Source: an uncultured Gammaproteobacteria bacterium (GTDB lineage: Bacteria; Pseudomonadota; Gammaproteobacteria; SZUA-152). From it: a stretch of 64,000 bases of DNA. The notes below the pieces were generated by a model. That model saw only the letters and a program-made list of their open reading frames with translations, was not told where the DNA came from and did no database searches. This document shows positions 11,292-52,675 of the stretch, piece by piece. The stretch is taken from NCBI GenBank assembly GCA_913009875.1, contig CAJVYS010000001.1:20578-84577 (forward strand), read 5' to 3'. Every line of letters begins with the position of its first letter. Position 1 is the first letter of the stretch. A program made the translations under genes and the position numbers.

Positions 11292-11397
11292 GCACATTGC
11301 CCTATAAGGTATGAAATTTGAATATTGACGCAACTGATCGCCAGATATAAGAAGACGTAAGGCGTATTAGCGGTTAAATCCTTGGTTAAAGAAGCAA

Positions 11398-11427: not shown

Positions 11428-11436
11428 AAGCAGCAA

Positions 11437-11610: not shown

Positions 11611-11614
11611 CGAA

Positions 11615-29677: not shown

Positions 29678-30090
29678 TTATGACTGGCGTCTCAGCGGAT
29701 CCTGGCGATAACAGCCAATCAGCTGTTCATAAACTTCTGCACAATAGTGCTGCAACACATTGGGGTACATAAAGAAATACTCGCTGATCACGGCAAAGAA
29801 TTCGGCCGGATGGGTGGTGGCATAGTCATCAATGCAGGCCGCCTCATGATGGAAAACCTGGTCCTGCAGGCGGGCAAAGGCCTGACTCAGCACGGTGGTC
29901 CAGCGCTGCAGGTTCATCTCCGGGTGCAATGGTGGAAAGCCATTGGCGCGTCCGTTCAACATATCCAGCTTGTGCGAAAACTCATGCAGGACGAGATTGC
30001 TCCCTGCCCTGCCGCCCGTCAGCTCCTGCGCAATACTGCCCCATGACAGGATCACCGGTCCGCGCTGCCAGGACTGCCCCATCAAGCACG
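29678..30090 (-). pseudogene. 3' fragment of an MtfA / peptidase M90 family zinc protein
   Basis: GQSWQRGPVILSW, NLVLHEFSHKLD (HExxH), YA.THPAEFFAV.SEYFF; N-terminal half absent. Confidence 0.75.
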
Positions 30091-30217
30091 CCCGCCGCAG
30101 CCGCAGCACCCATGAATGGGCGAAGCAGTTCGTCGACTACGGCGATACGGAGAATTACCGGCAGCGACTAAAGGAATTGCGCCGGGAGTTTCGTCGTTCC
30201 GAACATTGAGAGTGAAC

Positions 30218-30322: not shown

Positions 30323-33034
30323 TTAAGCAGTGAGGTTACGCGGCACGAAGCTCAGACTGTTGAAGGTACTCTTGTACTTGGATTCACCCAGTTTTTTCAC
30401 CTTGGCAATACCAAGCTTGTAGTTGTAGTTGCCGGTAATGATGTCCACCACCGCGCCCTGCAGCGAGTTGGTGGGTTGCCACATGTTAAGGAAGTTGGTG
30501 AACAGTACGCCCTTCTTGATCGCGGGTGTCACAAGCGCCACCGCCGTTACCGCGCCCTTGCCGAGTTCGATGTGCCCCTCTTTCATCAGGGTATCGAACT
30601 GCAGGTGGTTCTTGTAGACGCCGAGGATGGTGTCCTTGAAGGTCGGCACACGTTCGTTGTACATCATCACCAAGTCGCCCGACTCGATACCGCGCGCCGC
30701 GGCATCGTCCGGGTGGATCTCCATGAACTGGGTATCCGCCGGCCAGCGCTGGGCGATATAGGCGCGGCGTTCCGTGTCATCGAAACCCGATTGCCAGATC
30801 TCATTGATGCGGCCATTGGTGTGCCATAGCTCACCATCCTTTGGCTGCAGCCAGTACCAGTAATCGGAGATTAATGACCAGGGATGCTTCTGGAGATTGA
30901 CCTTGCCGGTCTGGCTGTTGAAGTGGGTGTACTTCTTGCTATGGAAATTGGCGCCTCTTGGCCCGTCCACGCCCCACTTTTTCTCCATGTCGGCCTTGGT
31001 CAAGGTGGTGTCATGCAGGCGTTTGGTGCCATGCAGTTCGCCGGTTTCGTAGTTATAGAAGGTGGGGCCCTGAATGCCATCGGTGCCCAGGGAACGCAAC
31101 TTTTCGTGCAGGGTGGTACCCTCGCGATGCGCCGCGACCTTGATCATGTGATAGGCCTTGCGGCTCTTGCGTGAGAAGCGTGACATCTCTTCCGCCACGT
31201 CGCTGGAGTTCTTCCAGTCATAGCCGTCGTAGCCCATGCGCTTGGCCATCTGGGCGATGATCCACCAATCGGGCTTGGCGTCGCCCGGGGCGTCATAGAA
31301 CTTCGAGTACAGGCGCATGCGGCGCTCACCATTGCCGCGCATGAAGTCTTCCTCGCCCCAGGTGGCGGCGGGGAATACGATATCGGCAAAGCGGCTGCCG
31401 ATGGGGTCACGCAGATAGATTTCGTGATTCCACACCACCATGCCACCGGAGTCGGCGCGCTTCTTCAGCGTGTCGATGATCTCCTGCTTGTCGTGCGAGC
31501 GCACCTGGTGAGGGTTGTGGGTCACCATCTGCTCGAAGGCCTGTTGCAGCCCCACGGTGCCGGCCATGGCCTGCACCCAGGTGGTGCCGATAACGTGCGC
31601 CAGACGGGTATGCCCGGATTTCAGCCAGCGGTCGGTGTCCAGTGGGCGCCGGCGTCTGCCCGGTACCTTCTCCGGTGATTTGTTGCGTGGATAGCTGCCG
31701 CCATTCTGACCACCGCGCTGGTGACCACCGAAGCGTCCCACCACCTGACCCGGCCGGCCGCCTGCGCCGCAGGTCGTCGCCAGGGAGGCGACGGCGTTGG
31801 TGTTGGATGTGCCGGCAGACCAATAGGCGCCCTTCTCAATGCCAAAGGAGGCCTTGATCCGCGAACCATCGGCCTTGGGCTTGGCCAGCCACTCGGCCGC
31901 CAGACGGATCTTGTCGGCATCGACGCCGGTGATGCGGGCGGCATTCTCCAGTTTGTACTCGTCCTGTGCCAGCAGCCACTTCTTGTAGCCCTCAAAGCCC
32001 CCGGTCTGAAACTTGCCCCAGGTGGTGCGCCACTGCCAGGGGGTGTTACGGGTGCCCTGGCCGAAACCGGAATTGGTTTCCCACTTGTTGTTGACCCACT
32101 TTTTGATCCATTCCTGATCCTGCCAACCGTTCTCGACGATGATGCGCGTGATCGCGCCCAGCAGCGGTGTATCGGTGCCCGGATAGAGGTCGAGGTGCAG
32201 GCCAACGCCCATTTTCTTGGCATAGGTCAGGCCGGCTGTCTCGCGCGGATTGATGAAGATAACCTTCATGCCACGATCGATGCCCGGCTTGATCCATTGG
32301 GTATAGATGATGGTCTTGGTTTCGTAGGGGTCGGTGCCACTGATCAACAGGGTGTCCGCCGCACCCCAGTCTTCATACGACGGGGCAAAATTGTCGAAAC
32401 CGGCATCACGATAACCCGGAGTGGAGGTCGCCTTGGAGGGCGTGTCGTGCCAGGTCCAGGCCGCGGTATTGACATCGCGGAAGGAGAAACGGGTGATGGC
32501 GTACATGTTTTCCAGAAACTGGTAACCAAAAGTCTTCACAGAATAGGCATTGGCACCATGGGCCTTGATGACATGCTTGCCCACCTCGGCGGCGATATCC
32601 AGGGCGAAATCCCAAGTCACTGGTTGCAGCATGCCATTGATGCGTACCAGGGGGTGCTTGAGCCTGTCCCGTGTCGGCTTGTCGGGATTGTAGACTTTCT
32701 GCGCGATACACCCGCCGCGGATACTGGAGTCACCCTGCAGGTTGACGTACTGGGTGCTCTTGTCGGGCGTGATCACCACATTATGGGGACGCCCTTTGTG
32801 CATCACCACATTGTGCTGAGTCGGCGCCACCCAGTCTTCCATGGCGGCCGAGGGAAAGTCGATGCCGAAGGCATTTTCCGCGGCCTTGGGGCCACCGCTG
32901 GGGGTACCTACCGGCCAGCGATAGACCTTGTAGCCGCAGGCCACGATGCAATAATCGCAGGCGGTGGTCAGCACATCACAATTCTTCGGCGGCAGCGGTG
33001 CATTGTCTTCAGGGATATAATACTCGGTAGTCAT
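30323..33034 (-). CDS. idrA: AioA-like molybdopterin catalytic subunit, probable dissimilatory iodate reductase large subunit
   Basis: CDYCIVACGY (CX2CX3C, [3Fe-4S] type) and SSIRGG, bis-MGD family motifs (GRINEIWQS, EIHPDDA), no own signal peptide, Rieske plus two CCP genes upstream. Confidence 0.82.
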   Translation of the reverse strand: MTTEYYIPEDNAPLPPKNCDVLTTACDYCIVACGYKVYRWPVGTPSGGPKAAENAFGIDFPSAAMEDWVAPTQHNVVMHKGRPHNVVITPDKSTQYVNLQGDSSIRGGCIAQKVYNPDKPTRDRLKHPLVRINGMLQPVTWDFALDIAAEVGKHVIKAHGANAYSVKTFGYQFLENMYAITRFSFRDVNTAAWTWHDTPSKATSTPGYRDAGFDNFAPSYEDWGAADTLLISGTDPYETKTIIYTQWIKPGIDRGMKVIFINPRETAGLTYAKKMGVGLHLDLYPGTDTPLLGAITRIIVENGWQDQEWIKKWVNNKWETNSGFGQGTRNTPWQWRTTWGKFQTGGFEGYKKWLLAQDEYKLENAARITGVDADKIRLAAEWLAKPKADGSRIKASFGIEKGAYWSAGTSNTNAVASLATTCGAGGRPGQVVGRFGGHQRGGQNGGSYPRNKSPEKVPGRRRRPLDTDRWLKSGHTRLAHVIGTTWVQAMAGTVGLQQAFEQMVTHNPHQVRSHDKQEIIDTLKKRADSGGMVVWNHEIYLRDPIGSRFADIVFPAATWGEEDFMRGNGERRMRLYSKFYDAPGDAKPDWWIIAQMAKRMGYDGYDWKNSSDVAEEMSRFSRKSRKAYHMIKVAAHREGTTLHEKLRSLGTDGIQGPTFYNYETGELHGTKRLHDTTLTKADMEKKWGVDGPRGANFHSKKYTHFNSQTGKVNLQKHPWSLISDYWYWLQPKDGELWHTNGRINEIWQSGFDDTERRAYIAQRWPADTQFMEIHPDDAAARGIESGDLVMMYNERVPTFKDTILGVYKNHLQFDTLMKEGHIELGKGAVTAVALVTPAIKKGVLFTNFLNMWQPTNSLQGAVVDIITGNYNYKLGIAKVKKLGESKYKSTFNSLSFVPRNLTA

Positions 33035-33136
33035 AGTGACACCCTCCGGTGATTCTTTTTAGTACCTTAGAAATAATTTTCTGCGCATTTTGTAGAAAAT
33101 TATTTTTTAGTGAAGGTACTTATCCTGTTTATGGGG

Positions 33137-33736
33137 TTACGATTCCAGCAGATTTTTGTGACGGCCAAAGATCAGCCCCATCATGCCTACGGCGTAGATA
33201 TTGTCGCCATCCAGTTCCAGTAGTACCTGGGGCAGGCTTTCGTAAGCCTGGCCCGAGACCACGATGCCATGTCGTCTCAGGTCATAGGTCGACAGATGGA
33301 GCGGACACTGGCCCAGGATGCGGTGCGGGCCTTCGGCCACATAGCTGCCCTGCAGCGGGCCGCCCTGGTGAGAGCAGATATAGTTGAAGGCAACCACATC
33401 CCGCTTCGGGCCGATGCCGCCACCGGCCTGTGCGCCCGCCATCTTGACGACCATGGCGGAAGAATTGGCCAGCTCATCCGGATAATTGAAATCCACCGGC
33501 ACGTTGTCTTTCAGCTCGCTGAGCTTGGCAATAAGCTTGCGGGGGTAACTCACCACCCGCGCCTGGGCCGCCTGTGCGCTGCCCGGAAATAGCGAGATGG
33601 TAATGGTGCTCGCCGCGACTGCCGTGCTGCCACTGTAAAGAAGGAACTGGCGGCGGGTGAGCATAACCTTGTTATGCACCGCGGCTGAACGTTCCTGCTT
33701 CTGCTTGTCTCTCGGTGTGCTTGTATCAGTACTCAT
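33137..33736 (-). CDS. idrB: AioB-like Rieske subunit with Tat signal
   Basis: TRRQFL Tat motif; CSHQG and CPLH Rieske boxes. Confidence 0.85.
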   Translation of the reverse strand: MSTDTSTPRDKQKQERSAAVHNKVMLTRRQFLLYSGSTAVAASTITISLFPGSAQAAQARVVSYPRKLIAKLSELKDNVPVDFNYPDELANSSAMVVKMAGAQAGGGIGPKRDVVAFNYICSHQGGPLQGSYVAEGPHRILGQCPLHLSTYDLRRHGIVVSGQAYESLPQVLLELDGDNIYAVGMMGLIFGRHKNLLES

Positions 33737-33765
33737 TTCTTGCCTCCGATTTCCGTTAGGAACGG

Positions 33766-35031
33766 TTATTTCGCAGCCTGCGCCGCCTCGAGTTCAGCCA
33801 ATGTGAACAGCGGCTTGTAGCCCGGCAGTCTGGGTTTGGCCATCATGATTTTTTCACCCGTGAAGGCTTCCAGGAAGGCCAGAAGATCCTCTTTTTCTTC
33901 ATCGCTCAAATTGAGCTTGGTGATCAACGGGGTCTTGGTCTTGGGGTAGCTGGTGGTGTTGCCTTCCTCATCGAAACCGCCGCGATCATAGAAGTCGATG
34001 ACTTCCTCGAGGGTATAGAACTGGCCCTGTCGCATGTAGGGTTCGGTGTAGCCGATATAACGCAAACTGGGAACCCGGAACTTGCCTTTGTCCCACTTGT
34101 TCTTGTTACGGAAGTACAGGCCGACATCGTCCTTGACCGTGCGATACAGTTCCTCGGTGGCACCCTTGGCATAGTATTCGAAGCGGAAGGTGATCTGTGC
34201 CAGTCCGTCTTCCAACCACCGCCCTGCGCGGGGGACACCGATATTGTAGTAATTTTCATTGGTAGCAAGGGCGCCATTATGACAAAGGATGCAGCGTGCC
34301 TTTCCTTCAAACAACGCCTTGCCACTCACCTGCTGCTCTGTCAGCGCGGAGCTGTCACCCAGAAGATATTTATCCAGTGGTGTATCACGCTGCACCAGGG
34401 TTCGCTCAAAGGCGGCGAGGGCCTTCCAGGCGTTGTTGATGGTGGGCCAGGGTTCACCGAAGGCCTCATTGAAGCGCTTGACGTACTCCGGGATCAGGCG
34501 CAGCCGTGCCTCCATAAGGTCATTCTCGCCGTTACCGGCGACACCGCCCTTGGCGGCGCTGGGTGCTTGCGCCTCCAGGGAGGGAACCGAACCTGCCCAG
34601 AACAACTTGCTGTAATAGGCGGTGTTGATAATGCTCTGGTTGCTGCGCCAGTGCACGGTGCCGGGATAGCCGCGGGAGATGTCTTCCGCCCAGGACCAGC
34701 CCTGCTCCGGGTCATGACAGGTGGCGCAGCTCACCGAGGCATCACCACCCAGGCGGGGATCAAAAAACAGCAGCTTGCCCAGTTCAATCTTGGCCTTCGA
34801 CATGGGGTTGTCAGGCGGAATGGGGGGTTCACCCAAGGGGGCCAGGGGCGGGATCGCCGCTTCCGGGGCCTTGGCAAACGTGCCGGCCATGGCGGGGGTT
34901 GGCCCCACTTGAGACATCCCGCTTGCTGAAGCCGATGGCTTGTCGCCCATGGCCGCCGCAACCGATACCGACAGAGCCGCTGCAACTGTCGTCGCCATTA
35001 TCAGAATAGACGTTTTCTTTAACGAACTCAT
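33766..35031 (-). CDS. idrP1: Di-heme cytochrome c peroxidase/MauG family protein (IdrP-type)
   Basis: Signal peptide, LGKLLFFDPRL, CATCH, CILCH, FRVPSLR; P1/P2 numbering assigned by position only. Confidence 0.75.
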   Translation of the reverse strand: MSSLKKTSILIMATTVAAALSVSVAAAMGDKPSASASGMSQVGPTPAMAGTFAKAPEAAIPPLAPLGEPPIPPDNPMSKAKIELGKLLFFDPRLGGDASVSCATCHDPEQGWSWAEDISRGYPGTVHWRSNQSIINTAYYSKLFWAGSVPSLEAQAPSAAKGGVAGNGENDLMEARLRLIPEYVKRFNEAFGEPWPTINNAWKALAAFERTLVQRDTPLDKYLLGDSSALTEQQVSGKALFEGKARCILCHNGALATNENYYNIGVPRAGRWLEDGLAQITFRFEYYAKGATEELYRTVKDDVGLYFRNKNKWDKGKFRVPSLRYIGYTEPYMRQGQFYTLEEVIDFYDRGGFDEEGNTTSYPKTKTPLITKLNLSDEEKEDLLAFLEAFTGEKIMMAKPRLPGYKPLFTLAELEAAQAAK

Positions 35032-35047
35032 GGCTCTCTCCTAGCGA

Positions 35048-36178
35048 TTAGTTGGGAACATCCAGCCAATTGGCGATTACTTCGTATTCTTTCGGATACG
35101 CTTCGGTCCACACGTGCCGACTGCTGGTCAGCGGTTTGCCGGATAGCGCTAGCAGAAAGGCCACCAGGTCTTTTTGCTCCTGCTTGCTCAGGTCCAGGGG
35201 TTTCATCCTGATGTCCTTGTTGCGGTCGTTATCACCACCACGGTTATAAAAGGCCACGACTTCCGGCAGTGTCTTGATCATGCCGTTGTGCATGTAGGGC
35301 GCGGTGTATTTCAGCTCCCGCAGACTGGGCGTAATGAACTTGCCTATGTCCGACCCATCCGCCTTGTGCTTCTGGATGTGGGCACCGGGGTCACGCTTGA
35401 GGTTCATGTAATTCACGATACCCATGAAATCGGCATAGCCAATGAAGGCCTGATGGCGCGCGGGATCGAGAAACACGTCAAAGTTCTCCTTTACGCCGGT
35501 GTTATATGGCTGGCCGTCGGTGAACATGGGGCCGTTGTGACAGGCGATGCAGCCCGCCTTGCCCTTGAACAGTTCCAGGCCGTGTTTTGCACTGGCCGAC
35601 ATCTGGCCGTCATCAAAAGGCGCCCCTTCCGAGTTCAGGGTCTTGAGGTATTCAGGGATGGCCTTGCGGGCGCCGCCATTGGACGGCTCACCCAGCCCCG
35701 CATCCTTGAACATCTTCACATACAGAGAGTCCTGCTTAAGACGCTCCTGCATGATGCGCATGTCCATGTTCATGATGTAAGATTCGGTAATCATGCCGCG
35801 GGTCACATCATTGAGGTTGGTGCCGATACGCCCGTCATGCATCCACACCGTTTTATGTGCGGCGTTGATCACGCTGGGGGCATTGCGGAAATGCTTGTTA
35901 CCGGGATAACCCTCGGACAGGGCGTCCGGATTGGCAAAGCCATATTCCGGCTTGTGACAGGTTCCGCAGGAGATGGCGGCATCTCCCGACAGACGCTTGT
36001 CAAAGAACAGACGCTTGCCCAGCTCTGCCCTGGCCTTGTTGACTTTGAGGGTCGCTAGCGGGCCAATATCATCGCCTGCTATCGCGACTGGATTCGCCAA
36101 TATCAAACCCATACCCAGGGCTGTTACGAGGAAACCCCTTTTATTCATAAATGGTCTTGTGGTCATTATGCCGGCCAT
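35048..36178 (-). CDS. idrP2: Di-heme cytochrome c peroxidase/MauG family protein (IdrP-type)
   Basis: Signal peptide, LGKRLFFDKRL, CGTCH, CIACH, F.TPSLR..TAPYMHNG; numbering by position only. Confidence 0.75.
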   Translation of the reverse strand: MAGIMTTRPFMNKRGFLVTALGMGLILANPVAIAGDDIGPLATLKVNKARAELGKRLFFDKRLSGDAAISCGTCHKPEYGFANPDALSEGYPGNKHFRNAPSVINAAHKTVWMHDGRIGTNLNDVTRGMITESYIMNMDMRIMQERLKQDSLYVKMFKDAGLGEPSNGGARKAIPEYLKTLNSEGAPFDDGQMSASAKHGLELFKGKAGCIACHNGPMFTDGQPYNTGVKENFDVFLDPARHQAFIGYADFMGIVNYMNLKRDPGAHIQKHKADGSDIGKFITPSLRELKYTAPYMHNGMIKTLPEVVAFYNRGGDNDRNKDIRMKPLDLSKQEQKDLVAFLLALSGKPLTSSRHVWTEAYPKEYEVIANWLDVPN

Positions 36179-36586: not shown

Positions 36587-38995
36587 TCAGACAACAGCCT
36601 TTCTTTGCCTGCGAACCAACAGCAGACCCATCAGGAATACACCACCGGCAATACCCAGTGGCAAACCATAAACCCTCACCGGATCGACTTCGGCGGGCAG
36701 TACCAGCCAGTACCAAGTGGTCAAGGTATGCTTCGACCCGGCCTCACCATTGCTGCCATCCCAGTCGGCGAAGGACACCGGAATAAAGTCACCCTCATTA
36801 AAGCTCACATCGCCACTGTCACCCCCGTTGCGAGGACGTTTCATCAGCACGCTCCACTGACCATTGTCCCAGCGGCTCTGTACCGAAAGACTGTCATCAC
36901 CCTCTCGAGGCACTATTTTCTGGTTAGGCCCGGAGGCATCCAGCAAGGCACCCCGGGATGCCACAGCGGGTTCCACGCTGCCGGCATTCCAATACCACAT
37001 GGTGGTGGGATGGGCGCCATCGCCATGGCGGAACAGGGGCTTGACCACCACGGGCTTGGTCTTGAATGAATCCTGTTTGGGGAACTGGATCGCAAGGGCA
37101 TCGGAATACAGGGTCAGCTTACTGTCCTGTATCTGTGTCGACACGGCTTCCCCCGGACGGCTGTCGGTACGATCATCCACTTTCATTAAGAAGGCGATCT
37201 CATCCGCGTTGTACAATACCTGCACCGTAATCGAGTCATTCAGTGGCGTAAACAGCCGGTCTTCCTTAATGATGTTGGGCACCAGAGGCAAGGTCACTGC
37301 AGGTGCCGTGTCCCACACCTCATCGGTCAAACTATCCGGCAAGGCACCCTCGATCTTTGCGGCACGCACTACCGGCTCATCACTGGGGGCAGCGGATTTG
37401 TTGCGCAGGCTGTAGACGTAATTGGCAATGTGCCAGCGATCTTCCAGGGAAACGGGATCCTTGTTGCCCTCCTCCGTCGCCCGGTGTGCCGGCATGGGTG
37501 TGCCCGGCACACCGATGGACAGACGTGTATAGATGTTTTTAATGGTCTGTTCACGGACCTTCTCATCCTCGCCAGACACATTGGTGACACGCCAGGTCCA
37601 GGGTTTGGTGAGGTTGCGCGGCCAGAGCCGGTTACCCCAGTCATCCTTCAGTTTTTTACCGGAGGTAATATTGCCGCGACCGGTAATGCCGTGACACTTG
37701 CCGCAAACCTTTTCAAAAACGGGTTTACCCTTGGCCACGGACTCTTCACTGAAAGGAATCTGCGATGCAACGGGTTCCGTGTTGGTAATCTTTTGGTAAT
37801 CCGTTTTCAGATAGCGACCGTCATCATCGAAGAACTCATCATCGGCGTCTTCCGGCGCCCAGGCCGCGGTGGTGTCAAAACCCTTGATCACGGGAATCAG
37901 GCTACGAATCTGCTTGTCGCTCAACAACGTGCTCCACGCCGGCATCGCCGTCCCGTTCAGGCCATGTTTAATGGTATTGAACAAATCATCATCACTTGGC
38001 AGCTCGGTGCCCGGTGAGGTCTTGTATTTGAACAGCGAGAGGGTAAAGTCACGCGGCTTGGGATACATGAGATCGGTGGCAACACCATCTCCCGCCCCCT
38101 GCTCGCCATGGCACACCTGGCAGCGTTGCACATAAACGTCGACACCCATTTGTTGCTTATGGCGCGCACTGACCTTGGACGCCATGCCACTCACCACCTT
38201 GGAGATTTCCGCATCCCACATGCGTGGCACCTGGCCGACATAGTCATAAAGAAAGGTAATCACTTCCCAGGTCTCATTCTCGTTCAGCATCTCGTGCCAC
38301 ACGGGCATGGCGGAATTCCACGGTGTACCCTCTTTGGGCAGGCCCGGGCCACCGGTCGAAATACGCCAGAACAGATAGGCCTCCTGCAACTGGGCAATGG
38401 TACCGACATCCTGGAAGTTGGCCGGCTGGGGACTGAAGCCCAGGGCATAATGACCCTTACCGTCCAACAGATCGCCATGACAGAAGAAACAGTTTTTGTA
38501 ATAGACATCACGCCCCGCCTCGACGATCCCTTCATAGGCCTCCCAGCCTTTGTCCTCATCTTCGGCCATGGTTTTCAAAACCTGTTCGCGCAGCGGATTT
38601 TCCAACTTGGACAAATTGTGGCTTTTGCCGAAGACTCGTAATGAGCCCGGCGGCGCGGGATGTACTTGGCGCAGTTCCACTGGCGCATCCATGGAGGGCT
38701 TGACAAAGCCATAGGTGGTATAACCAACGAGGGCCGGGATGGCGAGCAGGAAACCCCAGCGCACAATCACCAGTCTTGGCTCTCTGAGCACCGCCAGGAT
38801 CGGTGAATTGAATTCTTTCCAGCGCGCCTCATCAAAGGAAAAATACAACAATACACTGACAATGGTAATGATCATGTACTGCACCATCAGCGAACTGGGC
38901 AGCAAGGGTGGAAAGGCATTATCAAAAATCAGGTAGGCGATAATGACGACCAACACAGCCTGCCAAAAAGCGGGAATTTTAATGCCTTTCATCAT
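36587..38995 (-). CDS. Membrane-anchored tri-heme cytochrome c with C-terminal ethylbenzene-dehydrogenase-gamma (EB_dh, heme b)-like domain
   Basis: 3 N-terminal TM helices; CFFCH, CQVCH, CGKCH; W..AP..TLPL...D.LAIQFP...WYWNA...W.V.MKRP...F..WDG; C-terminal TM. Confidence 0.85.
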   Translation of the reverse strand: MMKGIKIPAFWQAVLVVIIAYLIFDNAFPPLLPSSLMVQYMIITIVSVLLYFSFDEARWKEFNSPILAVLREPRLVIVRWGFLLAIPALVGYTTYGFVKPSMDAPVELRQVHPAPPGSLRVFGKSHNLSKLENPLREQVLKTMAEDEDKGWEAYEGIVEAGRDVYYKNCFFCHGDLLDGKGHYALGFSPQPANFQDVGTIAQLQEAYLFWRISTGGPGLPKEGTPWNSAMPVWHEMLNENETWEVITFLYDYVGQVPRMWDAEISKVVSGMASKVSARHKQQMGVDVYVQRCQVCHGEQGAGDGVATDLMYPKPRDFTLSLFKYKTSPGTELPSDDDLFNTIKHGLNGTAMPAWSTLLSDKQIRSLIPVIKGFDTTAAWAPEDADDEFFDDDGRYLKTDYQKITNTEPVASQIPFSEESVAKGKPVFEKVCGKCHGITGRGNITSGKKLKDDWGNRLWPRNLTKPWTWRVTNVSGEDEKVREQTIKNIYTRLSIGVPGTPMPAHRATEEGNKDPVSLEDRWHIANYVYSLRNKSAAPSDEPVVRAAKIEGALPDSLTDEVWDTAPAVTLPLVPNIIKEDRLFTPLNDSITVQVLYNADEIAFLMKVDDRTDSRPGEAVSTQIQDSKLTLYSDALAIQFPKQDSFKTKPVVVKPLFRHGDGAHPTTMWYWNAGSVEPAVASRGALLDASGPNQKIVPREGDDSLSVQSRWDNGQWSVLMKRPRNGGDSGDVSFNEGDFIPVSFADWDGSNGEAGSKHTLTTWYWLVLPAEVDPVRVYGLPLGIAGGVFLMGLLLVRRQRKAVV

Positions 38996-39074
38996 TCACC
39001 CCGTACCAATAATATCGATTTATAGATTTTTTCTTCACCAGCCCTGCGGACACCTGCATTTATCGAGACACTCA

Positions 39075-40223
39075 TTACTTACGTTCCATCAGGAAAGTCA
39101 CCAGCGCATCCAGCTGTGCATCGCTCATTTGTTCGGAAAAGTTAGGCGGCATCACCCCCGAGGGAAAGCCCTTGGCAATAACGGCATTGGGGTCGACAAT
39201 ACTCTGACGAACTTGCCCGGCATCCAGTCGTGCCCCCACATCATCCAGGCCGGGGCCAATCTTTCCGCCACTTCCCCAAATGATGTGGCAGGCCTGGCAG
39301 CCAAACTGGCCGATCACTGCCTTGGCACTACTGCTATCGCCGCCATCATCTCCGTCTGTCGCATGAGTGTCCGGCAGGGATGCCGCGATAGATTTCTTAC
39401 TGTCCACCAAATAGTCCACCAATATATCCAGCTCCTTCACCATCATCTGCTCGGCGAAGTCCTGCGGCATCACACCGGGCGGGAAGCCCTCGGCAATCAC
39501 CACATCAGGGGTGATAATGCCCTGACGGATTTCTTCGCGGGTGAAGCGAGCAACCATCTGATCCAGGTCGGGGCCGAGATCCCCTCCGCTGCCCAGTATT
39601 TTGTGGCAAGCCTGGCAACCATACTTGGCGACTACCTCTTCAATTGTGCCCGCGGGTCCAGCTGCTTCCGGGCTGGCGGTTTCCATCGCCGGCGCCTCTG
39701 TGGGAAGCGTCACCGTCACATCGTGTCCATCCTTGGCCTGAAGGAAGGCAATGATGGCATTGATCTCTATTTCCGAAAGCTCAATCGGCGGTTTATCGAC
39801 CGCCGGCATGGGTGAAATGGTGTCGTTACTTCCCTTCTTACCGAAGCCCTTCACCACGTAGATACCGGGATCGACCATGGATTCATGCAGGTAGGATTCG
39901 GCATCAGTGGCTGAGCCCTTGTAGCGCTCATCCTGCATATGCTGGTTGGCCACCTCCACCATATTGATCGCCAATATATCCGGGGCGCGGCCGAGATCGT
40001 TATGGCACAGGGCACAGGTTCCCTTTCCTGAAAAGAGGGTCTCACCCAGGGCGGCATAAGATTCCACGGTCAACGCCCCCAGATCCACTTTCTGCTCGAC
40101 AGGGGCCTCACCTTCCACCTGTGGCAACAGGTTGGCGACCAGGGTGAACAACAGTGCCAAGGCCAGACTGAAGCCCATACTTTTTGCCAGCACACCGCGA
40201 GGGGCTTTTGTCTTGTTGCTCAT
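39075..40223 (-). CDS. Membrane-anchored tri-heme cytochrome c
   Basis: N-terminal TM; CALCH, CQACH, CQACH; the last two domains are near-duplicates. Confidence 0.9.
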   Translation of the reverse strand: MSNKTKAPRGVLAKSMGFSLALALLFTLVANLLPQVEGEAPVEQKVDLGALTVESYAALGETLFSGKGTCALCHNDLGRAPDILAINMVEVANQHMQDERYKGSATDAESYLHESMVDPGIYVVKGFGKKGSNDTISPMPAVDKPPIELSEIEINAIIAFLQAKDGHDVTVTLPTEAPAMETASPEAAGPAGTIEEVVAKYGCQACHKILGSGGDLGPDLDQMVARFTREEIRQGIITPDVVIAEGFPPGVMPQDFAEQMMVKELDILVDYLVDSKKSIAASLPDTHATDGDDGGDSSSAKAVIGQFGCQACHIIWGSGGKIGPGLDDVGARLDAGQVRQSIVDPNAVIAKGFPSGVMPPNFSEQMSDAQLDALVTFLMERK

Positions 40224-42085
40224 GCGGCCTCTCCTGCCTTTTTAGTCACCGACAATGGTGGCGCCTGTTTGGTATTACTGAGATTGGCGATCCAGAAGAT
40301 AAACAGGACAAAGAGTACAAACATGACAGTAACAATCGTCATCATATTTCCCGCATAACCAATAGTGGGGATAAAATTGTCCGGCGAGTTGTCCTTCATT
40401 ACGGTATACACATGCCAGTGGGTACGCACCGAAGAGCGCACATACCCCATCAGCGCCATCAACCAGGTAAAGGCGATGGGCAGTGCAAACAGGGCGTACT
40501 GGGAACGGTTGCTGACCTGGCCCCAGAAGGATGGCAGGGTCTTGGCCTTGCGATACATGAAGGCATCGATCACGACTCCACTGATAATGACCACCAGGGT
40601 GGACACCACCTGCGTAACACTCGCCCCGACCTTGTACACGGTGTTGGTGAAGTAACCGTAATAGACACCGGCAAAAATGATATTGACGATAGCCACGACA
40701 TAGATTGCCACCATCAGGGCATTGCCGGCCTTCTCCCACGAGACCGTGGCGACCTTGTCCGAGCGCCGGTAAATCTGGAAGGACAGAAAGGTGAAAATGA
40801 GCATCAGATTCACGGCGATGTTCTTGGCCGGCATGATCCCCAGTGGTCCCAGCAAGTGATGATGGCTACCACCCAAGGCGGCGATTTCACCCGAGGTAAG
40901 GATCAGGGTATGCGGCGTCACCCAGATCAGGAAACAGATGACCAGGACGACGGCGATATATTTGATCATCCCCTGGTAACGCTTTGATCCTTCGGTGCGT
41001 GACATGCCAGACCACAAATAGTAGTTACCCGCCATGAGGATGGTGCCGATCAATACTGCCTGAACGATAAACAACCAGGCCAGAATGCCACCCATGGCGG
41101 TAATGCCCATCTGCTGCGAATAGGCGTAGATCTCGGCCATCAGCCAATAACCGGCGAAGGGCAAGGGCAGGAAGGCGAGGATGGCGATGAAGTTGGAGGT
41201 GTAGCCCATCCAGTCATAATGCGCGCGGTCCTCGGCGGTTCGGGCGGCCAGACACTTGTAGGCCGCATAGGCTCCCACCACCGCGCCGCCGAAGGCAATG
41301 TTGGCGATAAACCGATGCAGATTGATGGGGTTCCACAACGGCCCCTTCATGACCTCCCAGATATTGCCGATGACCGCGCCGACCTCATTGACCCCCGAGG
41401 GCGCCATCATGAAGGTGGCCCAGGAGTTGGCCATCACCATCAACGTAGCGCCGACACCATTCAATAACAGACCCAGGGAAATATGTACCCACTTGGCGTT
41501 GCCATAGCGCATGGCATCCCAGCCGTAGTAATAGATGTAAAGCAATATGCTTTCCATGAAGAACAGCATGGCGTAAACCAGCATCTGTGCGCCGAAGGCC
41601 TGCATCAGATAGGCCATTAAATCGGGATAAAGCAGGAATAACGCTAACGCCAGGGTGCCACCGAACAGGGCCGTGATGGAATAGGCGGTAATGCTGATCT
41701 TCATGAACTCGTGGGCCATGTCGTCATAGCGCGCATCACCGGTGGATCGGCCCAGCAGTTCAATCACCAGCACAAAAAGCGGCACCGCCAGCACCAGGGC
41801 GCCGAAAAATAAATGCATTTGCGCGATGATCCAGACAATGGAGCGGCTACTGACGCCGACATCGGGATAATCCTCACGGCCAGGCCGGGGGGCCGGTCTC
41901 AGCTGAAATTCCTGCGCAGAATCAGCACTCTCTGCCGTGGCCACTTCCTCTGCGGCAACTTCACTCGCCACGGCCTCGGGCAACCAGTGAGTCGGCGCCA
42001 TGTCTCCTGACCATAAAAAACCCAGTACGGCGACCACCAACAGAGACAGCAGTATCGGTGACGAGAAATTTCTTGTTTCCTTCAT
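40220..42085 (-). CDS. Cytochrome bd subunit I (CydA)-like orphan membrane protein
   Basis: AQMHLFF (His19-like), ANSWATFM, NLHRFIAN (His186-like), MGYVRSSVRTHW; many TM helices; no cydB nearby. Confidence 0.82.
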   Translation of the reverse strand: MKETRNFSSPILLSLLVVAVLGFLWSGDMAPTHWLPEAVASEVAAEEVATAESADSAQEFQLRPAPRPGREDYPDVGVSSRSIVWIIAQMHLFFGALVLAVPLFVLVIELLGRSTGDARYDDMAHEFMKISITAYSITALFGGTLALALFLLYPDLMAYLMQAFGAQMLVYAMLFFMESILLYIYYYGWDAMRYGNAKWVHISLGLLLNGVGATLMVMANSWATFMMAPSGVNEVGAVIGNIWEVMKGPLWNPINLHRFIANIAFGGAVVGAYAAYKCLAARTAEDRAHYDWMGYTSNFIAILAFLPLPFAGYWLMAEIYAYSQQMGITAMGGILAWLFIVQAVLIGTILMAGNYYLWSGMSRTEGSKRYQGMIKYIAVVLVICFLIWVTPHTLILTSGEIAALGGSHHHLLGPLGIMPAKNIAVNLMLIFTFLSFQIYRRSDKVATVSWEKAGNALMVAIYVVAIVNIIFAGVYYGYFTNTVYKVGASVTQVVSTLVVIISGVVIDAFMYRKAKTLPSFWGQVSNRSQYALFALPIAFTWLMALMGYVRSSVRTHWHVYTVMKDNSPDNFIPTIGYAGNMMTIVTVMFVLFVLFIFWIANLSNTKQAPPLSVTKKAGEAA

Positions 42086-42177
42086 GCCGCTATCTCCACA
42101 ATCTTGAGTCGGGTGTTAAGTACGGCGCCTGGAGGTAGAACCCCAGCACATAGAACCAAAGTTTTCATCGTCATGAT

Positions 42178-42306
42178 TTACTGTGACGGTGTTAAATCAA
42201 GATTCAGAGGCAAGCCCTGCACATTCATGATCAAGTGATCCAATCCATAGAAAAGGATCAGCACCACGGTGAAGGCGATTAACCAGATTTGTAGATTCTT
42301 TCCCAT
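42178..42306 (-). CDS. 42-aa single-TM small protein
   Basis: MGKNLQIWLIAFTVVLILFYGLDHLIMNVQGLPLNLDLTPSQ; purine-rich leader; in operon. Confidence 0.6.
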   Translation of the reverse strand: MGKNLQIWLIAFTVVLILFYGLDHLIMNVQGLPLNLDLTPSQ

Positions 42307-42384
42307 TTGCTTCTCTTGATCTTTACGCGTGAAATATTCCGTCCGCCATAACATGGCGAACACGAATTCTGTTCTCAATCAACG

Positions 42385-42546
42385 TCAACCGTGATGTATT
42401 TCAGCACCGCCGGAATAGATTAGCAGCCACCAGAAAAACACCAGCATCAGAACCAGGATGGTCCAGAACAATTTGGGACCCCAGGTGGTGCCGTCCTGTA
42501 ACTCCGTGGCCTGGGTCTTGTCTTCTTGCTTCCCCGATGCAGTCAT
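42385..42546 (-). CDS. 53-aa single-TM small protein (not in ORF track)
   Basis: MTASGKQEDKTQATELQDGTTWGPKLFWTILVLMLVFFWWLLIYSGGAEIHHG; GGAG RBS. Confidence 0.65.
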   Translation of the reverse strand: MTASGKQEDKTQATELQDGTTWGPKLFWTILVLMLVFFWWLLIYSGGAEIHHG

Positions 42547-42656
42547 GTCGTCTCCACTCGTCGTCGCTACTTAAACCTGCCGCATTGCCGGGAAAGTCCG
42601 GAAGTCGTTATTTTCAGCAGACCCATTCGTCACAGTTGATCCATCTGCCCGAGACA

Positions 42657-42674
42657 TAGCAACATCCAGGCCAT
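42657..42674 (-). promoter_or_regulatory. Putative sigma54 promoter for the bd-like operon
   Basis: Minus strand ATGGCCTGGATGTTGCTA = GG-N10-GC with TTGC. Confidence 0.6.
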
Positions 42675-42995: not shown

Positions 42996-43012
42996 TTGGT
43001 ACGGCTTCTGCT
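42996..43012 (+). promoter_or_regulatory. Putative sigma54 promoter for the HEAT/USP/radical SAM operon
   Basis: TTGGTACGGCTTCTGCT, close to YTGGCACGRNNNTTGCW. Confidence 0.65.
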
Positions 43013-43128
43013 ATCCACAAGCTAACGCGATGTGAAACAGCGTCCTGAAACCGGAACACATGCACTTTCTATCTTCATGGGATATCAACGTGACCAGTAT
43101 TCAAAAACCAACGGATTCAAAACGAGAT

Positions 43129-45597
43129 ATGGCTGACAAACAAGACGCAGTGCAAGCCCTCCGCAGGCTGCTCAGCAAGGGCGATGAACTGGATCGTTGT
43201 TGCGCCTGCCGCTCCCTCGGCGTACTGGGGAGCCGTGATGCCGTACAGGCACTGGTCAAACATCTGCGCGATGACGATATCGATGTGTGTATCGATGCCG
43301 CTGAATCCCTGGGACTGCTGGATGATCCGACCGCCGTCGCACCCTTGATCGAATCCTTGCACAATGACTCCGATGGTGAAATCAGGGTCTCCGTCGTCGA
43401 GGCACTGGGACGCCTGGGTGGAGAACAGGCCACGTCAGCGCTGCTGTCACTGCTGACATCCGTGCCGGAAGATACCGACTGGGACGATGATGATGCCTGG
43501 GACAGCAACTGGGACGTCCAGCGCAAGGCCGTGCAGGCATTGGGTTACCTGCATGTCGCCGAGGCCGTTGCCCCCCTCACCACGCTGCTGGACGAAGAAG
43601 ACGCCCTGGTCGACGAAACCGACGTCCTGCTGGCCCTGGCGCGGATTGGTGATGCCGGTGAAGACATCGTCATCCAACGCCTGCAGAACGGCACGACACG
43701 TGAACGCCGGCGTGCGGCCCATGCCTTGGGCCAACCCTGCTCCCCCACCGGCGCCCGTGCCCTGGGTCGCGCCTTGCGAGATCCGGAACCGGAAGTCCGC
43801 GCCGTCGCCGCCGAAGCGCTCGCCAATAATGGCCAGGGCCGCTACCTGGGCGCCCTGCTCCTGCTGTTGCGTGATCCCGCCGACGAAGTGCGCGAAATCG
43901 CCCTGAAGATGGCCAGCAAGCTCAGTTCACAGGTCAATGCCGAACTCGATGTACAACAGCTGTTGCCCCTGTTGGGCGATCCCAGTGCCAGGGTGCGCGC
44001 CGCCGCGCTGCACGCCTTGCAGGGACACTTGCCCGACCCGCTTGATGCCGAAACCCGGGCACGCCTGGTCGGCTTGCTGAGCGATTCCGAGCCCATGGTT
44101 GCCACCGCCGCCCTCCCTCACGCTCCCCGTCTGGAGGATCCGGACGTCGATGCTATCCTGCTCGGTCTGCTGGCCGATGAACAACGGGATCCCGCCGTTC
44201 GACAGCAGGCCGCACTGGCCCTGGGCAATCGCCCACAAACCTCAGAGGAAGTGCTCACGGTCCTGGACAACGCGATCAATGACCATGAACCTGTGGTGCG
44301 CTGGGCGGCATTACAGGCCCTGATGGCCTGTCATAAAAAACAGCCCGATACGACCACTTCCGATGCAGCCCCCGACACAGCACTTGATACAGCTCTCGAT
44401 ACAGTTTTTGATACAGAGAAAGAGAAGCCCGCTGAAGCAGAAGACGAGCCCGCCGCCCCGCTGGCCCGCATTCTCGCCGCATTGCATGGCGAAGCGGGCA
44501 TGGTCACAACAACGCTTGCATCTGCCGAAAGCAGCAGCGGAGACGATCCAATCCCCGAGTCAACGGACGAGACTTCCGTCGACGTTTCTGACGCCCAAGA
44601 AGAAACCGATGCATCAAGCATCAATGAGACCGCACCGGCATCGACCCTCGACGCCATCATGCTGGCCAATACAGAATACGAGCAACTCGACGAAAAGAAA
44701 AAAACCATCACCACGGATGTACTGCCCGAACTGCCAGCCGAGGAAACCGAAGCCTTCCAGGACTTCTATGACATCCTCGCCCGGCAGCGGCATAACAAGA
44801 AAAAGTTCTACCGTGGCAAGAATATCGATATCGAGGCCGATATCCGCCTGCTCAGCGCCCGCGTCCTCGGCGAGTGCAGCCAGCCCGAGGTGGTCGAGGT
44901 ACTGAAAAAGACCATGCTTGAGGATAACCCCGAACTCCAGCAGGAAGCCGTTGACGCCCTCGCACGCCTGGTGCCGGGTACCCCCGGGTTGACAGAAACA
45001 CTGGGACCACTGAACAGCCTTCTGCATATGGGGGCATCCGAACTACGGGTCGCCAGCGCACGCGCACTGGGCGCCCTCGGCAACCTGCCCTGCCTGCCCA
45101 ATCTGCAGGAAAGCCTGCAGGATGAAAATCCTCTGGTACGCAGTCAATCGGTCATGGCCATAGCGCAGATACTGGAACGACACGCCGGCAAGCTGTCATG
45201 GGAACAGCACGCCGACACGCATACCGCCATCCCCGTCGCCAGCGCACGGGCACAAGAAGAGGCCGATACCATCGAACAGACATTGCACGCCCTGTCCGAA
45301 CATCTGGCCGACAGTGATGTGGGCGTCAGCAAGGCCGCCGCTCTGTCGCTGGCAAAACTAAACCCGCTTCTGCCCGGCGGCAAGACCCGTGATGACATCA
45401 TTGAGCGTCTTATTACCGCCGGCTTTGTCGGCGAGGGACGGCAAGCGCGGGAGATGGGCCAGGCCTTACGCGCCCTTGACCCCGGCATGGCCAGCGACAC
45501 ACTGATACACCACCTGGATACCTTGCCATCGAGTATGGAACGACGATTTGTGCTGGAAATGCTGGAAGAAGTCTTCCGCCCATCACAGGCCGCATAG
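43129..45597 (+). CDS. HEAT / PBS-lyase-like repeat protein
   Basis: Many D....VR..A..ALG.L repeats, acidic low-complexity middle; likely start MADKQD. Confidence 0.85.
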   Translation: MADKQDAVQALRRLLSKGDELDRCCACRSLGVLGSRDAVQALVKHLRDDDIDVCIDAAESLGLLDDPTAVAPLIESLHNDSDGEIRVSVVEALGRLGGEQATSALLSLLTSVPEDTDWDDDDAWDSNWDVQRKAVQALGYLHVAEAVAPLTTLLDEEDALVDETDVLLALARIGDAGEDIVIQRLQNGTTRERRRAAHALGQPCSPTGARALGRALRDPEPEVRAVAAEALANNGQGRYLGALLLLLRDPADEVREIALKMASKLSSQVNAELDVQQLLPLLGDPSARVRAAALHALQGHLPDPLDAETRARLVGLLSDSEPMVATAALPHAPRLEDPDVDAILLGLLADEQRDPAVRQQAALALGNRPQTSEEVLTVLDNAINDHEPVVRWAALQALMACHKKQPDTTTSDAAPDTALDTALDTVFDTEKEKPAEAEDEPAAPLARILAALHGEAGMVTTTLASAESSSGDDPIPESTDETSVDVSDAQEETDASSINETAPASTLDAIMLANTEYEQLDEKKKTITTDVLPELPAEETEAFQDFYDILARQRHNKKKFYRGKNIDIEADIRLLSARVLGECSQPEVVEVLKKTMLEDNPELQQEAVDALARLVPGTPGLTETLGPLNSLLHMGASELRVASARALGALGNLPCLPNLQESLQDENPLVRSQSVMAIAQILERHAGKLSWEQHADTHTAIPVASARAQEEADTIEQTLHALSEHLADSDVGVSKAAALSLAKLNPLLPGGKTRDDIIERLITAGFVGEGRQAREMGQALRALDPGMASDTLIHHLDTLPSSMERRFVLEMLEEVFRPSQAA

Positions 45598-45691: not shown

Positions 45692-46426
45692 ATGAATAAG
45701 GCACTCACGGTATTTACCCTATTTGCAGCAGCCAGTCTTCCGTTAACGGCCGCAGCCTACAAGGTCGTGGATGTTGCCAACGGCGGCACCATCACTGGAA
45801 AAGTGAATTTTTCGGGAACCGACCCGGCGCCAAAAATCTACGCCATCACCAAGGACACCGATGCCTGCGGTACCGGTGATCGTGAAATTGATTTTGTCCG
45901 CGTCACCAATGGCGCCCTCAATGACACCGTGGTCTATCTGAAAAAGGTAAAATCCGGCAAGGATTTTTCGGCCGACATCAATAACCTCGAGGTCAACCAG
46001 AAGAAATGCGGCTTCATTCCCTTCCTGTCGGTGATGAAAAACAAAGACAAATTAGCGGTGCACAACTCAGACCCGGTGCTGCACAATATCCATACCTACG
46101 AACTTATCGGTAAGGCGAGAAAGACCGTCTTCAACATCAGTCAGCCACCGGAACTCACCGTCATCAAGAAGACCGTCAAGCTCAAGCGTGGCGCTGCCAT
46201 GAAGCTGGAGTGTGATGCCCACGACTTCATGCACGGTTATGTCTTCGTGGCCAAAAACCCCTACTTTGCCGTCGTTAAAGAGGACGGCAGCTTCGTCATC
46301 GACAATGTCCCCCCCGGCAACTACAAGATTGCCGCCTGGCACGGTCTCCTGGGCGAACAAAAGGGCAAGGTCACGGTGGATGCCGGCGGCAAGACCTCCA
46401 TCGATTTCACATTCAAGGGCAGATAA
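45692..46426 (+). CDS. Secreted cupredoxin-like protein with carboxypeptidase-regulatory-like domains
   Basis: Sec signal; HNIH ... CDAHDFM fits a type-1 Cu His/Cys/His/Met set. Confidence 0.7.
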   Translation: MNKALTVFTLFAAASLPLTAAAYKVVDVANGGTITGKVNFSGTDPAPKIYAITKDTDACGTGDREIDFVRVTNGALNDTVVYLKKVKSGKDFSADINNLEVNQKKCGFIPFLSVMKNKDKLAVHNSDPVLHNIHTYELIGKARKTVFNISQPPELTVIKKTVKLKRGAAMKLECDAHDFMHGYVFVAKNPYFAVVKEDGSFVIDNVPPGNYKIAAWHGLLGEQKGKVTVDAGGKTSIDFTFKGR

Positions 46427-49123: not shown

Positions 49124-49127
49124 CACG

Positions 49128-51149: not shown

Positions 51150-51157
51150 ATATGCCG

Positions 51158-51241
51158 GTAGGTTGGGGTGAGGTACGAACCCCAACAGCGGCAGTTTGCC
51201 AAAACCTCGATTGTTGGGGTTCGTACCTCACCCCAACCTAC
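51158..51241. repeat. REPIN, family C, inside the operon
   Basis: Perfect 30-bp inverted repeat between radical SAM gene and hemY. Confidence 0.9.
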
Positions 51242-51256
51242 AACTAGAAGTAAAAC

Positions 51257-52675
51257 ATGACCGACACAGACGTACTCATCATCGGCGGTGGAATCTCCGG
51301 CCTCGCCACGGCTTGGTGGCTGGCCCAGGCGGGTGTCTCTGTGCAGGTGTGGGAGGCCGACAAGCGCATCGGCGGCAAGATAAAGAGCCGCCAGCAGGAT
51401 GGCTACCTCACCGAGCAGGCCGCCTCGCTATTGATGAATTTTCGCCCGGAAGTCGCGCAACTGGTGCACGCAGCGGGGCTGGACGAGGTCAAGACCCGGC
51501 GCATCTCCCAGGCCCAGGCACGACGCTATCTCCTCCACCGTGGCCAACTACAGGCCTTGCCGATGCGAATCGGCGGCATGTTGACCTCGCCCCTGTGGAG
51601 TCTGCGCGGCAAATTACGCCTGATGCTGGAGCCCTTCATCCCCGCCGGTAGCCACGATGACGAATCCGTCAGCCAGTTCATCCGCCGGCGGCTGGGCAAT
51701 GAAATGCTGGAAAAGGCCATGGAACCCTTTGTCGCCGGCACCCTGTCGGCAGACCCGGATCTGGCCAGCGCCGGCGCCACTCTGCCCCGTCTGACCACAC
51801 TGGAACGCCACTTCGGCTCCATCACCGCCGGTGTGGTGGCGCATAAACTGCTGCGCCGCCGCACCGCTTGCAGCACCGATACCTTTTCCTTCCGCGGTGG
51901 CATGAGCACACTGGCCAATACCCTGGCATGCACACCCGGCCTGCAGATCCTCTCCAACCGTCGCGTGCAGGAAGTGGCGCCCTGCCGGAATGGCTGGCGT
52001 GTCACTGCGGCAACCCCGGACGGAGAACGCAGCCTCACCGCCACACACGTCATCATGGCCACACCGGCACCGGCGGCGGCAAACCTGCTGGCATCGGTGG
52101 ACAAAACCCTGGCATCGCTACTGGATGAAATCCGCTATGCGCCACTGGCGGTGTTACACATGGGGCTGGAACGCGCAGATATCGAACACCCACTGGACGG
52201 CACCGGCTTCCTCACGCCACGATGCGAGCAGCAACCCTTTTCCGGCAATCTGTGGATGAGCAGCCTGTTTGCGGATCGCGCCCCGCAAGACAAGGCCCTG
52301 CTCACCACCTACCTTGGCGGTGCCCGCCAACCCGAGGCCGCCGCCTGGAGTGACGCCCGCCTGGTCGACGAGAGCCTGCGTGCGCTGACACCGCTGCTGG
52401 GACTGAAGGGCAGTCCTGTGATGGTGCGCATCGATCGCCACGCCCAGGCCCTGCCCCTCTACCATGGTGCCCATATGGCGCGGGACCGGAGTATCAGCCA
52501 GCAACTGCGCGCCTTGCCCGGTCTGCATGTCGAAGCCAATTATCGGGGTGGTGTATCCGTACGTGATCGCATTGCCCGTGGCCGCTCATTGGCGCGCCAC
52601 ATCTGCACACAATTGCAGACAAATACGCGGGGCCTGTCAGCGGATACCCTGATTTCACTGCCCGCGAATCGTTAA
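51257..52675 (+). CDS. hemY: FAD-dependent protoporphyrinogen/coproporphyrinogen oxidase (HemY type)
   Basis: IIGGGISGL, EA..RIGG.I, RRRLG.E......PFVAG..S.DP, FRGGM..L, GTGFL.P, LPLYH. Confidence 0.85.
   Translation: MTDTDVLIIGGGISGLATAWWLAQAGVSVQVWEADKRIGGKIKSRQQDGYLTEQAASLLMNFRPEVAQLVHAAGLDEVKTRRISQAQARRYLLHRGQLQALPMRIGGMLTSPLWSLRGKLRLMLEPFIPAGSHDDESVSQFIRRRLGNEMLEKAMEPFVAGTLSADPDLASAGATLPRLTTLERHFGSITAGVVAHKLLRRRTACSTDTFSFRGGMSTLANTLACTPGLQILSNRRVQEVAPCRNGWRVTAATPDGERSLTATHVIMATPAPAAANLLASVDKTLASLLDEIRYAPLAVLHMGLERADIEHPLDGTGFLTPRCEQQPFSGNLWMSSLFADRAPQDKALLTTYLGGARQPEAAAWSDARLVDESLRALTPLLGLKGSPVMVRIDRHAQALPLYHGAHMARDRSISQQLRALPGLHVEANYRGGVSVRDRIARGRSLARHICTQLQTNTRGLSADTLISLPANR

Follow-up and report, generated by a model that had tools for sequence, protein, structure and literature searches.

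We propose that four adjacent genes in a 64,000-nucleotide stretch of DNA from an uncultured gammaproteobacterium (GenBank assembly GCA_913009875.1, contig CAJVYS010000001.1, positions 20,578 to 84,577; hereafter the window) form an idrP2-idrP1-idrB-idrA operon, and that this operon very probably encodes a periplasmic iodate reductase of the Idr family. A first-pass annotation, made from the DNA letters, had held that an AioBA-like enzyme encoded with two peroxidases fits iodate reductase rather than arsenite oxidase. The placement of the large subunit in a phylogenetic tree, a topology test, synteny and the second-sphere residues of the active site all agree with it. The operon is a further member of an already described family; it is the accessory genes recurring around it that could teach something new.

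The operon and its place in the Idr family

All four genes lie on the minus strand in one operon, and the annotation had described their products correctly: a large subunit with a CDYCIVACGY-type motif, a Rieske subunit bearing a signal for twin-arginine translocation (Tat), and two di-haem cytochrome c peroxidase (CCP) proteins. The two peroxidase-like genes come first, idrP2 (36178-35048; 376 aa) and then idrP1 (35031-33766; 421 aa). Both products match Pfam CCP_MauG (3.8e-35 and 6.9e-41), carry two CxxCH motifs (residues 71 and 210 in IdrP2, 102 and 247 in IdrP1) and begin with a hydrophobic N-terminal leader of the Sec type. They are named by position: because the accessions of Azoarcus sp. 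DN11 run in the order IdrA, IdrB, IdrP1, IdrP2 (PMC10149662), the gene adjoining idrB is taken as idrP1 and the first gene, distal to idrB, as idrP2. The Rieske [2Fe-2S] subunit is encoded by idrB (33736-33137; 199 aa); it has the Rieske Pfam domain, the twin-arginine motif TRRQFLL and the cluster motif CSH-x20-CPLH, with a spacer of 20 residues against the 18 reported in DN11, and Met25 may be its true start. The catalytic subunit, encoded by idrA (33034-30323; 903 aa), starts with MTTEYYIPED, has no signal peptide, and combines an N-terminal 3Fe-4S domain (Rieske_3, 2.9e-36) with Molybdopterin and Molydop_binding domains. Its motif TACDYCIVACGY contributes C26, C29 and C33, which together with S104 give CX2CX3CX70S, the 3Fe-4S motif described in the IdrA of DN11 (PMC10149662). 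The genes are separated by gaps of 16, 29 and 102 nt, and the order peroxidase, peroxidase, Rieske subunit, catalytic subunit is held in every related locus whose contig is long enough.

A candidate sigma-54 promoter with -24/-12 boxes, TGGCCTGCATTGTGCA (36289-36274, minus), lies 111 nt upstream of the idrP2 ATG. The box stands at an equal distance in eight close relatives, where nothing but the spacer or the final base varies, and more distant relatives have no match to a strict pattern; position and conservation in close relatives make it a lead, and a weak one. At the other end of the operon, 54 nt past the idrA stop, a hairpin followed by a T-run (30269-30257, minus) matches the consensus of a terminator. 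Just past this hairpin we note a 143-aa open reading frame (ORF; 29678-30109, minus) that matches only the C-terminal half of Peptidase_M90 (positions 116-243 of 243); it has the look of a truncated gene, and close relatives keep the same shortened form.

The large subunit was placed in a maximum-likelihood tree (IQ-TREE) of 57 sequences rooted on NapA, with ArxA and ArrA references left outside it. In this tree, four AioA proteins with aioXSR or ars neighbours and four representatives make up an AioA clade (support 100/100) that stands apart from an Idr superclade of 36 rows (94/89). The superclade splits into two branches. One is the Azonexus/Sulfurivermis type (100/100), which includes the sole experimentally proven IdrA of the tree, the plasmid-borne enzyme of Azonexus hydrophilus NCP973 (L082). 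The other comprises 29 rows (100/100), among them Methylomirabilales, Nitrospinota and 'Deltaproteobacteria' sequences and a marine clade of 23 rows (100/100), in which the window IdrA is found with alphaproteobacterial sequences and with Gammaproteobacteria that Reyes-Umana et al. 2021 (PMC8692401) give as idr carriers in their Table S3. Six of these listed genomes group with the window protein: Endozoicomonas sp. OPT23, Moritella dasanensis, Vibrio sinaloensis, Photobacterium proteolyticum, Sedimenticola thiotaurini and Thiomargarita nelsonii. The NCP973 enzyme thus falls in the sister lineage of the window's marine branch. The family tree that the annotation had suggested as a check, built here from IdrA and AioA references, consequently puts the window protein within the Idr superclade; forcing it into AioA costs 325 log-likelihood units and is rejected by the approximately unbiased (AU) test (p 1.6e-34). 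Branching within AioA, which the annotation had named as a refutation, is not what the tree shows.

Pairwise identities follow the tree. The window IdrA is 27-30% identical to context-verified AioA and 66-98% identical to Idr-clade proteins. A scan of genome contigs found a relative in at least 577 genomes, the best of them (94-98%) in metagenome-assembled genomes (MAGs) of uncultured Gammaproteobacteria (Ectothiorhodospiraceae, Chromatiales, HyVt vent bins); next come named marine Gammaproteobacteria (68-74%), alphaproteobacterial-type rows (66-67%) and the 'Deltaproteobacteria' row (54%). Identities to the proteins of Azonexus NCP973 are 49% for IdrA, 54% for IdrB, 48% for IdrP2 and 52% for IdrP1, and IdrB is 40% identical to the AioB of Ensifer. 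Both subclades occur in one species: Sedimenticola hydrogenitrophicus has an IdrA of the marine type (P0089/P0105, ~70% to the window) and one of the Azonexus type (P0388, 67% to L082).

By a published synteny rule, idr loci are told from aio loci by two CCP paralogues in the cluster (PMC8692401), and the annotation had leaned on this rule as the definition of idrABP1P2. We built a tree from the two peroxidases of the window, of 14 marine loci and of three loci of the Azonexus type. It resolves the 'first gene' and the 'adjacent to idrB' copies into two groups, with a Shimodaira-Hasegawa-like approximate likelihood-ratio test value (SH-aLRT) of 100 for each. Every locus contributes one copy to each group and both groups span both IdrA subclades, so each window peroxidase sits in an orthogroup of its own that the Azonexus type shares. 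With two orthogroups and a single copy of each per locus, the pair is the ancient Idr pair and not a recent tandem duplication. The two genes are missing from aio reference loci, both as published (PMC8692401) and in those that we inspected.

Residues around the active site separate the two enzymes further. In the AioA of strain NT-26, the conserved second-sphere residues are D169, H199, R201, E207, K413, R447, H451 and E453 (Engrola et al., PMC10448176), and all eight are invariant in the eight AioA rows of our alignment. At these positions the window IdrA has G, H, T, S, K, R, H and R: H199, K413, R447 and H451, the catalytic core, are kept, whereas D169, R201, E207 and E453 have become G, T, S and R, a replacement of four of the eight that takes in all three acidic residues. 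The marine Idr clade has the pattern G/S, H, T, S, K, R, H, R and the Azonexus type S, H, K, D, K, R, H, R, which means that the whole Idr superclade has lost D169 and E453, and the marine clade E207 as well. The GGAGG insertion that follows the DH motif of AioA is also missing from the window IdrA, and an active-site stretch, FHDTPS..TSTPG, is common to the window and alphaproteobacterial-type IdrA. To judge from these residues, a less acidic pocket would fit a shift from neutral As(OH)3 to anionic IO3-. In the 57-sequence set, the four-residue signature (D169, R201, E207 and E453 of AioA) separates both enzymes. Two representatives, P0134 and P0137, form deep branches between AioA and Idr and keep R201, E207 and E453 without D169; they may be arsenite-type enzymes and are candidates for the 'unknown clade'.

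Substrate, physiology and competing readings

The annotation had foreseen that automated pipelines might label this enzyme arsenite oxidase or arsenate reductase, and this is indeed what happens. The window IdrA scores 405 bits against the NCBIfam model TIGR02693 ('arsenate reductase (azurin) large subunit'; cut-off 359) and IdrB scores 113.8 bits against TIGR02694 (cut-off 95.65), no Idr-specific model is found among the NCBIfam release 20.0 hits, and public homologues carry the names arsenite oxidase, arsenate reductase or 'molybdopterin-dependent oxidoreductase'. Context-verified AioA proteins reach 1367-1468 bits on TIGR02693, compared with 402-460 for Idr-type proteins from Azonexus, Moritella and Methylomirabilales, and the label is therefore produced by too permissive a cut-off; P0134, a deep representative, reaches 603. 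The 'equivalog' threshold of 359 admits all Idr-type proteins that we scored and accounts for a systematic database error; a cut-off anywhere between ~650 and 1300 bits would separate the proteins scored here.

The annotation had also reported that ars, aioX and chlorite-dismutase-like genes are missing from the window, and our searches came back equally empty. With the proteins of the aio/ars locus of Ensifer adhaerens plasmid pD as tblastn queries, AioX, both ArsC and ArsR have no match in the window at E<=1e-3, and Pfam domains of chlorite dismutase (Chlor_dismutase) or ars proteins are absent from the scanned window ORFs of >=142 aa, those below ~140 aa not having been profile-scanned. The AioB and AioA queries match the operon at 40% and 27% identity. 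The AioS and AioR queries match one kinase and two sigma-54 activators; these homologues belong to the kinase/sigma-54 regulator pair seen beside idr genes elsewhere.

What the enzyme would do can be sketched from its family. The Tat signal of IdrB would carry IdrA, already loaded with molybdenum bis(pyranopterin guanine dinucleotide) (Mo-bisPGD) and 3Fe-4S, into the periplasm, where electrons from a high-potential carrier (a c-type cytochrome or a cupredoxin) would pass through the Rieske and 3Fe-4S clusters to the molybdenum and reduce IO3-. In published models the product is hypoiodous acid, with or without H2O2, and HIO would finally be converted to iodide. In the host, Idr would serve as a terminal reductase at low oxygen, perhaps with sulfur oxidation coupled to it. 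That this host respires iodate is proposed by analogy, function having been shown in other branches of the clade only. Azonexus hydrophilus NCP973 grows while reducing IO3- to I- and induces idrABP1P2 in the iodate phase; synthesised idr clusters of one alphaproteobacterial and one SAR324 MAG from oxygen minimum zones (OMZ) raised iodate-to-iodide conversion in Escherichia coli DH5alpha, where the empty-vector background was about 28%; and most marine MAGs with idr are sulfur oxidisers (Li et al. 2026, PMC13455634).

Two other readings have to be weighed against an Idr-type iodate reductase. Were the enzyme an arsenite oxidase of the AioBA kind, As(III) would donate electrons to cytochrome c or azurin, which would hand them on to an oxidase, and a cytochrome-c-linked, bd-like putative oxidase does adjoin the idr operon. 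The passing TIGR02693 and TIGR02694 scores, the AioS/AioR homologues and the solved AioA structures, which are the best matches of the window IdrA in the PDB, point the same way, and the cofactor set (3Fe-4S, Rieske) is that of AioAB, with no detectable difference in the Cys/Ser ligand motif. We nevertheless regard this reading as extremely improbable: the AioA-like score falls far short of true AioA, identity is far higher to Idr-clade proteins than to AioA, the AU test rejects an AioA placement, all four signature residues that are invariant in AioA are replaced, and the locus holds the two peroxidase genes that aio loci lack while showing no match to AioX, ArsC or ArsR; reference aio loci have aioX with aioSR and/or ars genes. 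A less distant possibility, though still an unlikely one, is that this is an Idr-family enzyme whose main job differs from energy-conserving iodate respiration, such as detoxification or opportunistic reduction at the micromolar iodate of seawater, a role in reducing some other high-potential oxyanion (bromate, chlorate or similar), or an oxidising direction that feeds the bd-like complex. In aerobic marine Alphaproteobacteria with idr clusters, iodate is reduced mainly when oxygen is limiting, the physiological role of these clusters is stated to be unclear, and seawater contains only 0.4-0.5 uM iodate (PMC11445184); moreover, two second-sphere positions distinguish the marine type (T/S) from the Azonexus type (K/D), the nearest proven enzyme in the tree is distant, and the operon has a dedicated bd-like/cytochrome c module linked to it. 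Set against this, organisms that grow on iodate share the four-gene core, the two orthogroups of peroxidases, the regulator pair and moaA, clusters of marine MAGs turn iodate stoichiometrically into iodide (PMC13455634), and nothing in this analysis points to another substrate.

Several points do weigh against our proposal of an iodate reductase used for respiration. We found no direct activity test for the gammaproteobacterial sub-branch of the window, and the nearest proven IdrA in the tree is 49% identical. We infer that the alphaproteobacterial and 'Deltaproteobacteria' rows correspond to the MAG types tested in E. coli, and the position of the IdrA proteins of IR-12, SCT and DN11 relative to the window rests on a published tree (PMC8692401). 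Published work assigns no settled role to IdrP1 or IdrP2. Among sequencing runs, no RNA run holding the window idrA was found. The sigma-54 boxes are consensus matches and are not enriched across the window, with 28 matches at two mismatches where 46 are expected.

Partial matches in DNA runs come mainly from vent, marine and sediment metagenomes, and the closest public contigs are MAGs from studies of hydrothermal and marine sediments; the host is probably a sulfur-oxidising, uncultured gammaproteobacterium of marine sediment or vent habitats. The window contains no tRNA, and the genes downstream of idrA are common to the closest relatives, on which basis the idr locus looks stably inherited in this lineage. 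Our proposal would add an uncultured vent or sediment lineage of Gammaproteobacteria to the carriers of iodate reductase, and it fits the recent suggestion that, in low-oxygen seawater, sulfur oxidisers link the oxidation of sulfide to the reduction of iodate.

Comparison with known systems sharpens this picture. Isolated iodate respirers with IdrABP1P2 are Pseudomonas sp. SCT, Denitromonas iodatirespirans IR-12, Azoarcus sp. DN11, Aromatoleum toluclasticum TC-10 and Azonexus hydrophilus NCP973. The window shares with them the same four genes in the same order, the 3Fe-4S, Rieske, Tat and CxxCH motifs, pairwise orthologous peroxidases, the loss of D169 and E453 of AioA, and a locus that includes a sensor kinase, a sigma-54 regulator and moaA. 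It differs in belonging to the marine subclade, at 48-54% identity to the Azonexus proteins, in having T and S where the Azonexus type has K and D at the R201 and E207 equivalents, in lacking a small cytochrome c gene after idrA, and in keeping its regulators and moaA ~20 kb off, beyond other accessory genes; its host, too, is uncultured and probably a sulfur oxidiser of the Gammaproteobacteria. The marine MAG clusters tested in E. coli resemble the window in habitat and in their proposed link to sulfur oxidisers (PMC13455634), and alphaproteobacterial-type IdrA falls in the same 100/100 clade, but those clusters are alphaproteobacterial or from SAR324, whereas the window host is gammaproteobacterial. 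With the AioBA of Alcaligenes faecalis and of Pseudorhizobium/Rhizobium sp. NT-26 (PDB 1G8K, 4AAY), the window enzyme has in common the fold family, a Mo-bisPGD without protein ligand, the 3Fe-4S cluster, a Tat-Rieske partner and the four second-sphere residues that it retains; it departs from AioBA in its separate clade, in the replaced residues and missing GGAGG insertion, in its gene context and, as we would expect, in working in the reductase direction.

The gene cluster around the operon

The region upstream of idrP2 is occupied by an accessory operon on the same strand (36587-42673, minus), characterised here from Pfam and NCBIfam hits and CxxCH counts. Its first genes are two small ORFs, each with a single helix (about 42545-42385 and 42305-42178), and a gene for a CydA-like membrane protein (42085-40220; 621 aa), which has 12-14 hydrophobic segments and no CxxCH. 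Two tri-haem cytochromes c follow, one of 382 aa (40223-39075) and one of 802 aa that also has an EB_dh haem-b domain (38995-36587). A sigma-54-like box (42673-42658, minus) lies upstream of this bd-like operon. The module fits the description of the bd-like families without a quinol site in Murali et al., and we found no paper in the literature that connects idrA with cytochrome bd. Among 80 related genome loci, it stands beside idr in 24, from Sedimenticola, Thiodiazotropha, Motiliproteus, Thiomargarita, Aestuariirhabdus and a tubeworm symbiont. In loci L090-L092, which belong to the other IdrA subclade, it is found downstream of idr and the regulators. Since locus L004 has no such module between its HEAT gene and idrP2 despite an IdrA 95% identical to that of the window, the module behaves as an insertable cassette.

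Divergent from the bd-like operon, and preceded by another sigma-54-like box (42997-43012, plus), is a gene for an 845-aa HEAT-repeat protein (43060-45597, plus; HEAT_2, 5e-63) that is cytoplasmic by sequence, having no signal peptide. Homologues with 23-71% identity occur beside idr in 14 loci, including Endozoicomonas OPT23, Moritella and Vibrio; the distant ones (23-36%) hold the same position in the loci of Endozoicomonas, Moritella, Vibrio and Motiliproteus. Next comes a secreted, putative cupredoxin-like protein of 244 aa (45692-46426, plus) with an H…C-x2-H-x2-M motif and a CarboxypepD_reg-like C-terminus. Its homologues (50-86% identity) are found in nine idr loci of both subclades, for example as a 240-aa gene before idrP in L090, and with a possible type-1 (blue) copper site it may be an electron carrier or donor.

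The regulators lie further along the plus strand: a sensor histidine kinase of 864 aa (53129-55723) and a sigma-54-dependent response regulator of 487 aa (55720-57183), both recognised by Pfam and 34% and 39% identical, respectively, to the pair directly upstream of idr in A. hydrophilus NCP973. They are followed by moaA (57255-58238, plus; Radical_SAM and Mob_synth_C), with which molybdenum cofactor synthesis begins; the moaA that lies downstream of idrA in NCP973 is 49% identical to it. A kinase/ZraR-like pair and moaA are among the genes common to the iodate respirers IR-12 and SCT (Table S2, PMC8692401). Expression is probably driven by sigma-54 under the kinase/regulator pair encoded in the locus.

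It is conceivable, although we would not yet call it probable, that in this marine branch the idr operon does not stand on its own but is the terminal part of a co-regulated respiratory supercluster of ~28 kb (30.3-58.2 kb). A bd-like complex of the OR-N type, with six c-haems and the EB_dh haem b, would then be the dedicated membrane partner of the reductase, serving either as the entry of electrons from the membrane or as a sink for O2/H2O2 arising from iodate reduction; the cupredoxin-like protein would act as a shuttle and the HEAT protein as a maturation factor, with one kinase/sigma-54 pair driving three operons. If true, this would give the uncharacterised OR-N family its first physiological context and would supply the 'missing' quinone-linked component remarked on in the first idr papers. 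For iodine cycling, the bd-like module and the other conserved neighbours are the part worth following, and several culturable relatives carry them.

Three further regions of the window deserve mention. Between the cupredoxin-like gene and the kinase (46886-52675, plus) are genes for a protein with Usp and four PCP_red domains, an AhbD/NirJ-like radical SAM protein with three PCP_red domains and a HemY-like oxidase, the last with a 39% homologue adjoining the idr cluster in L090/L091; these genes may provide haem supply or modification for the cytochromes of the locus. Beyond moaA (58245-63124), a NorR-like GAF/sigma-54 activator adjoins genes for multicopper-oxidase-domain and c-type cytochrome proteins. 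Finally, the stretch at 8000-12000 has a low GC content (0.37-0.43 against ~0.58 in its flanks), encodes T5orf172/DUF4041 and DUF2971 proteins, and is probably foreign DNA.

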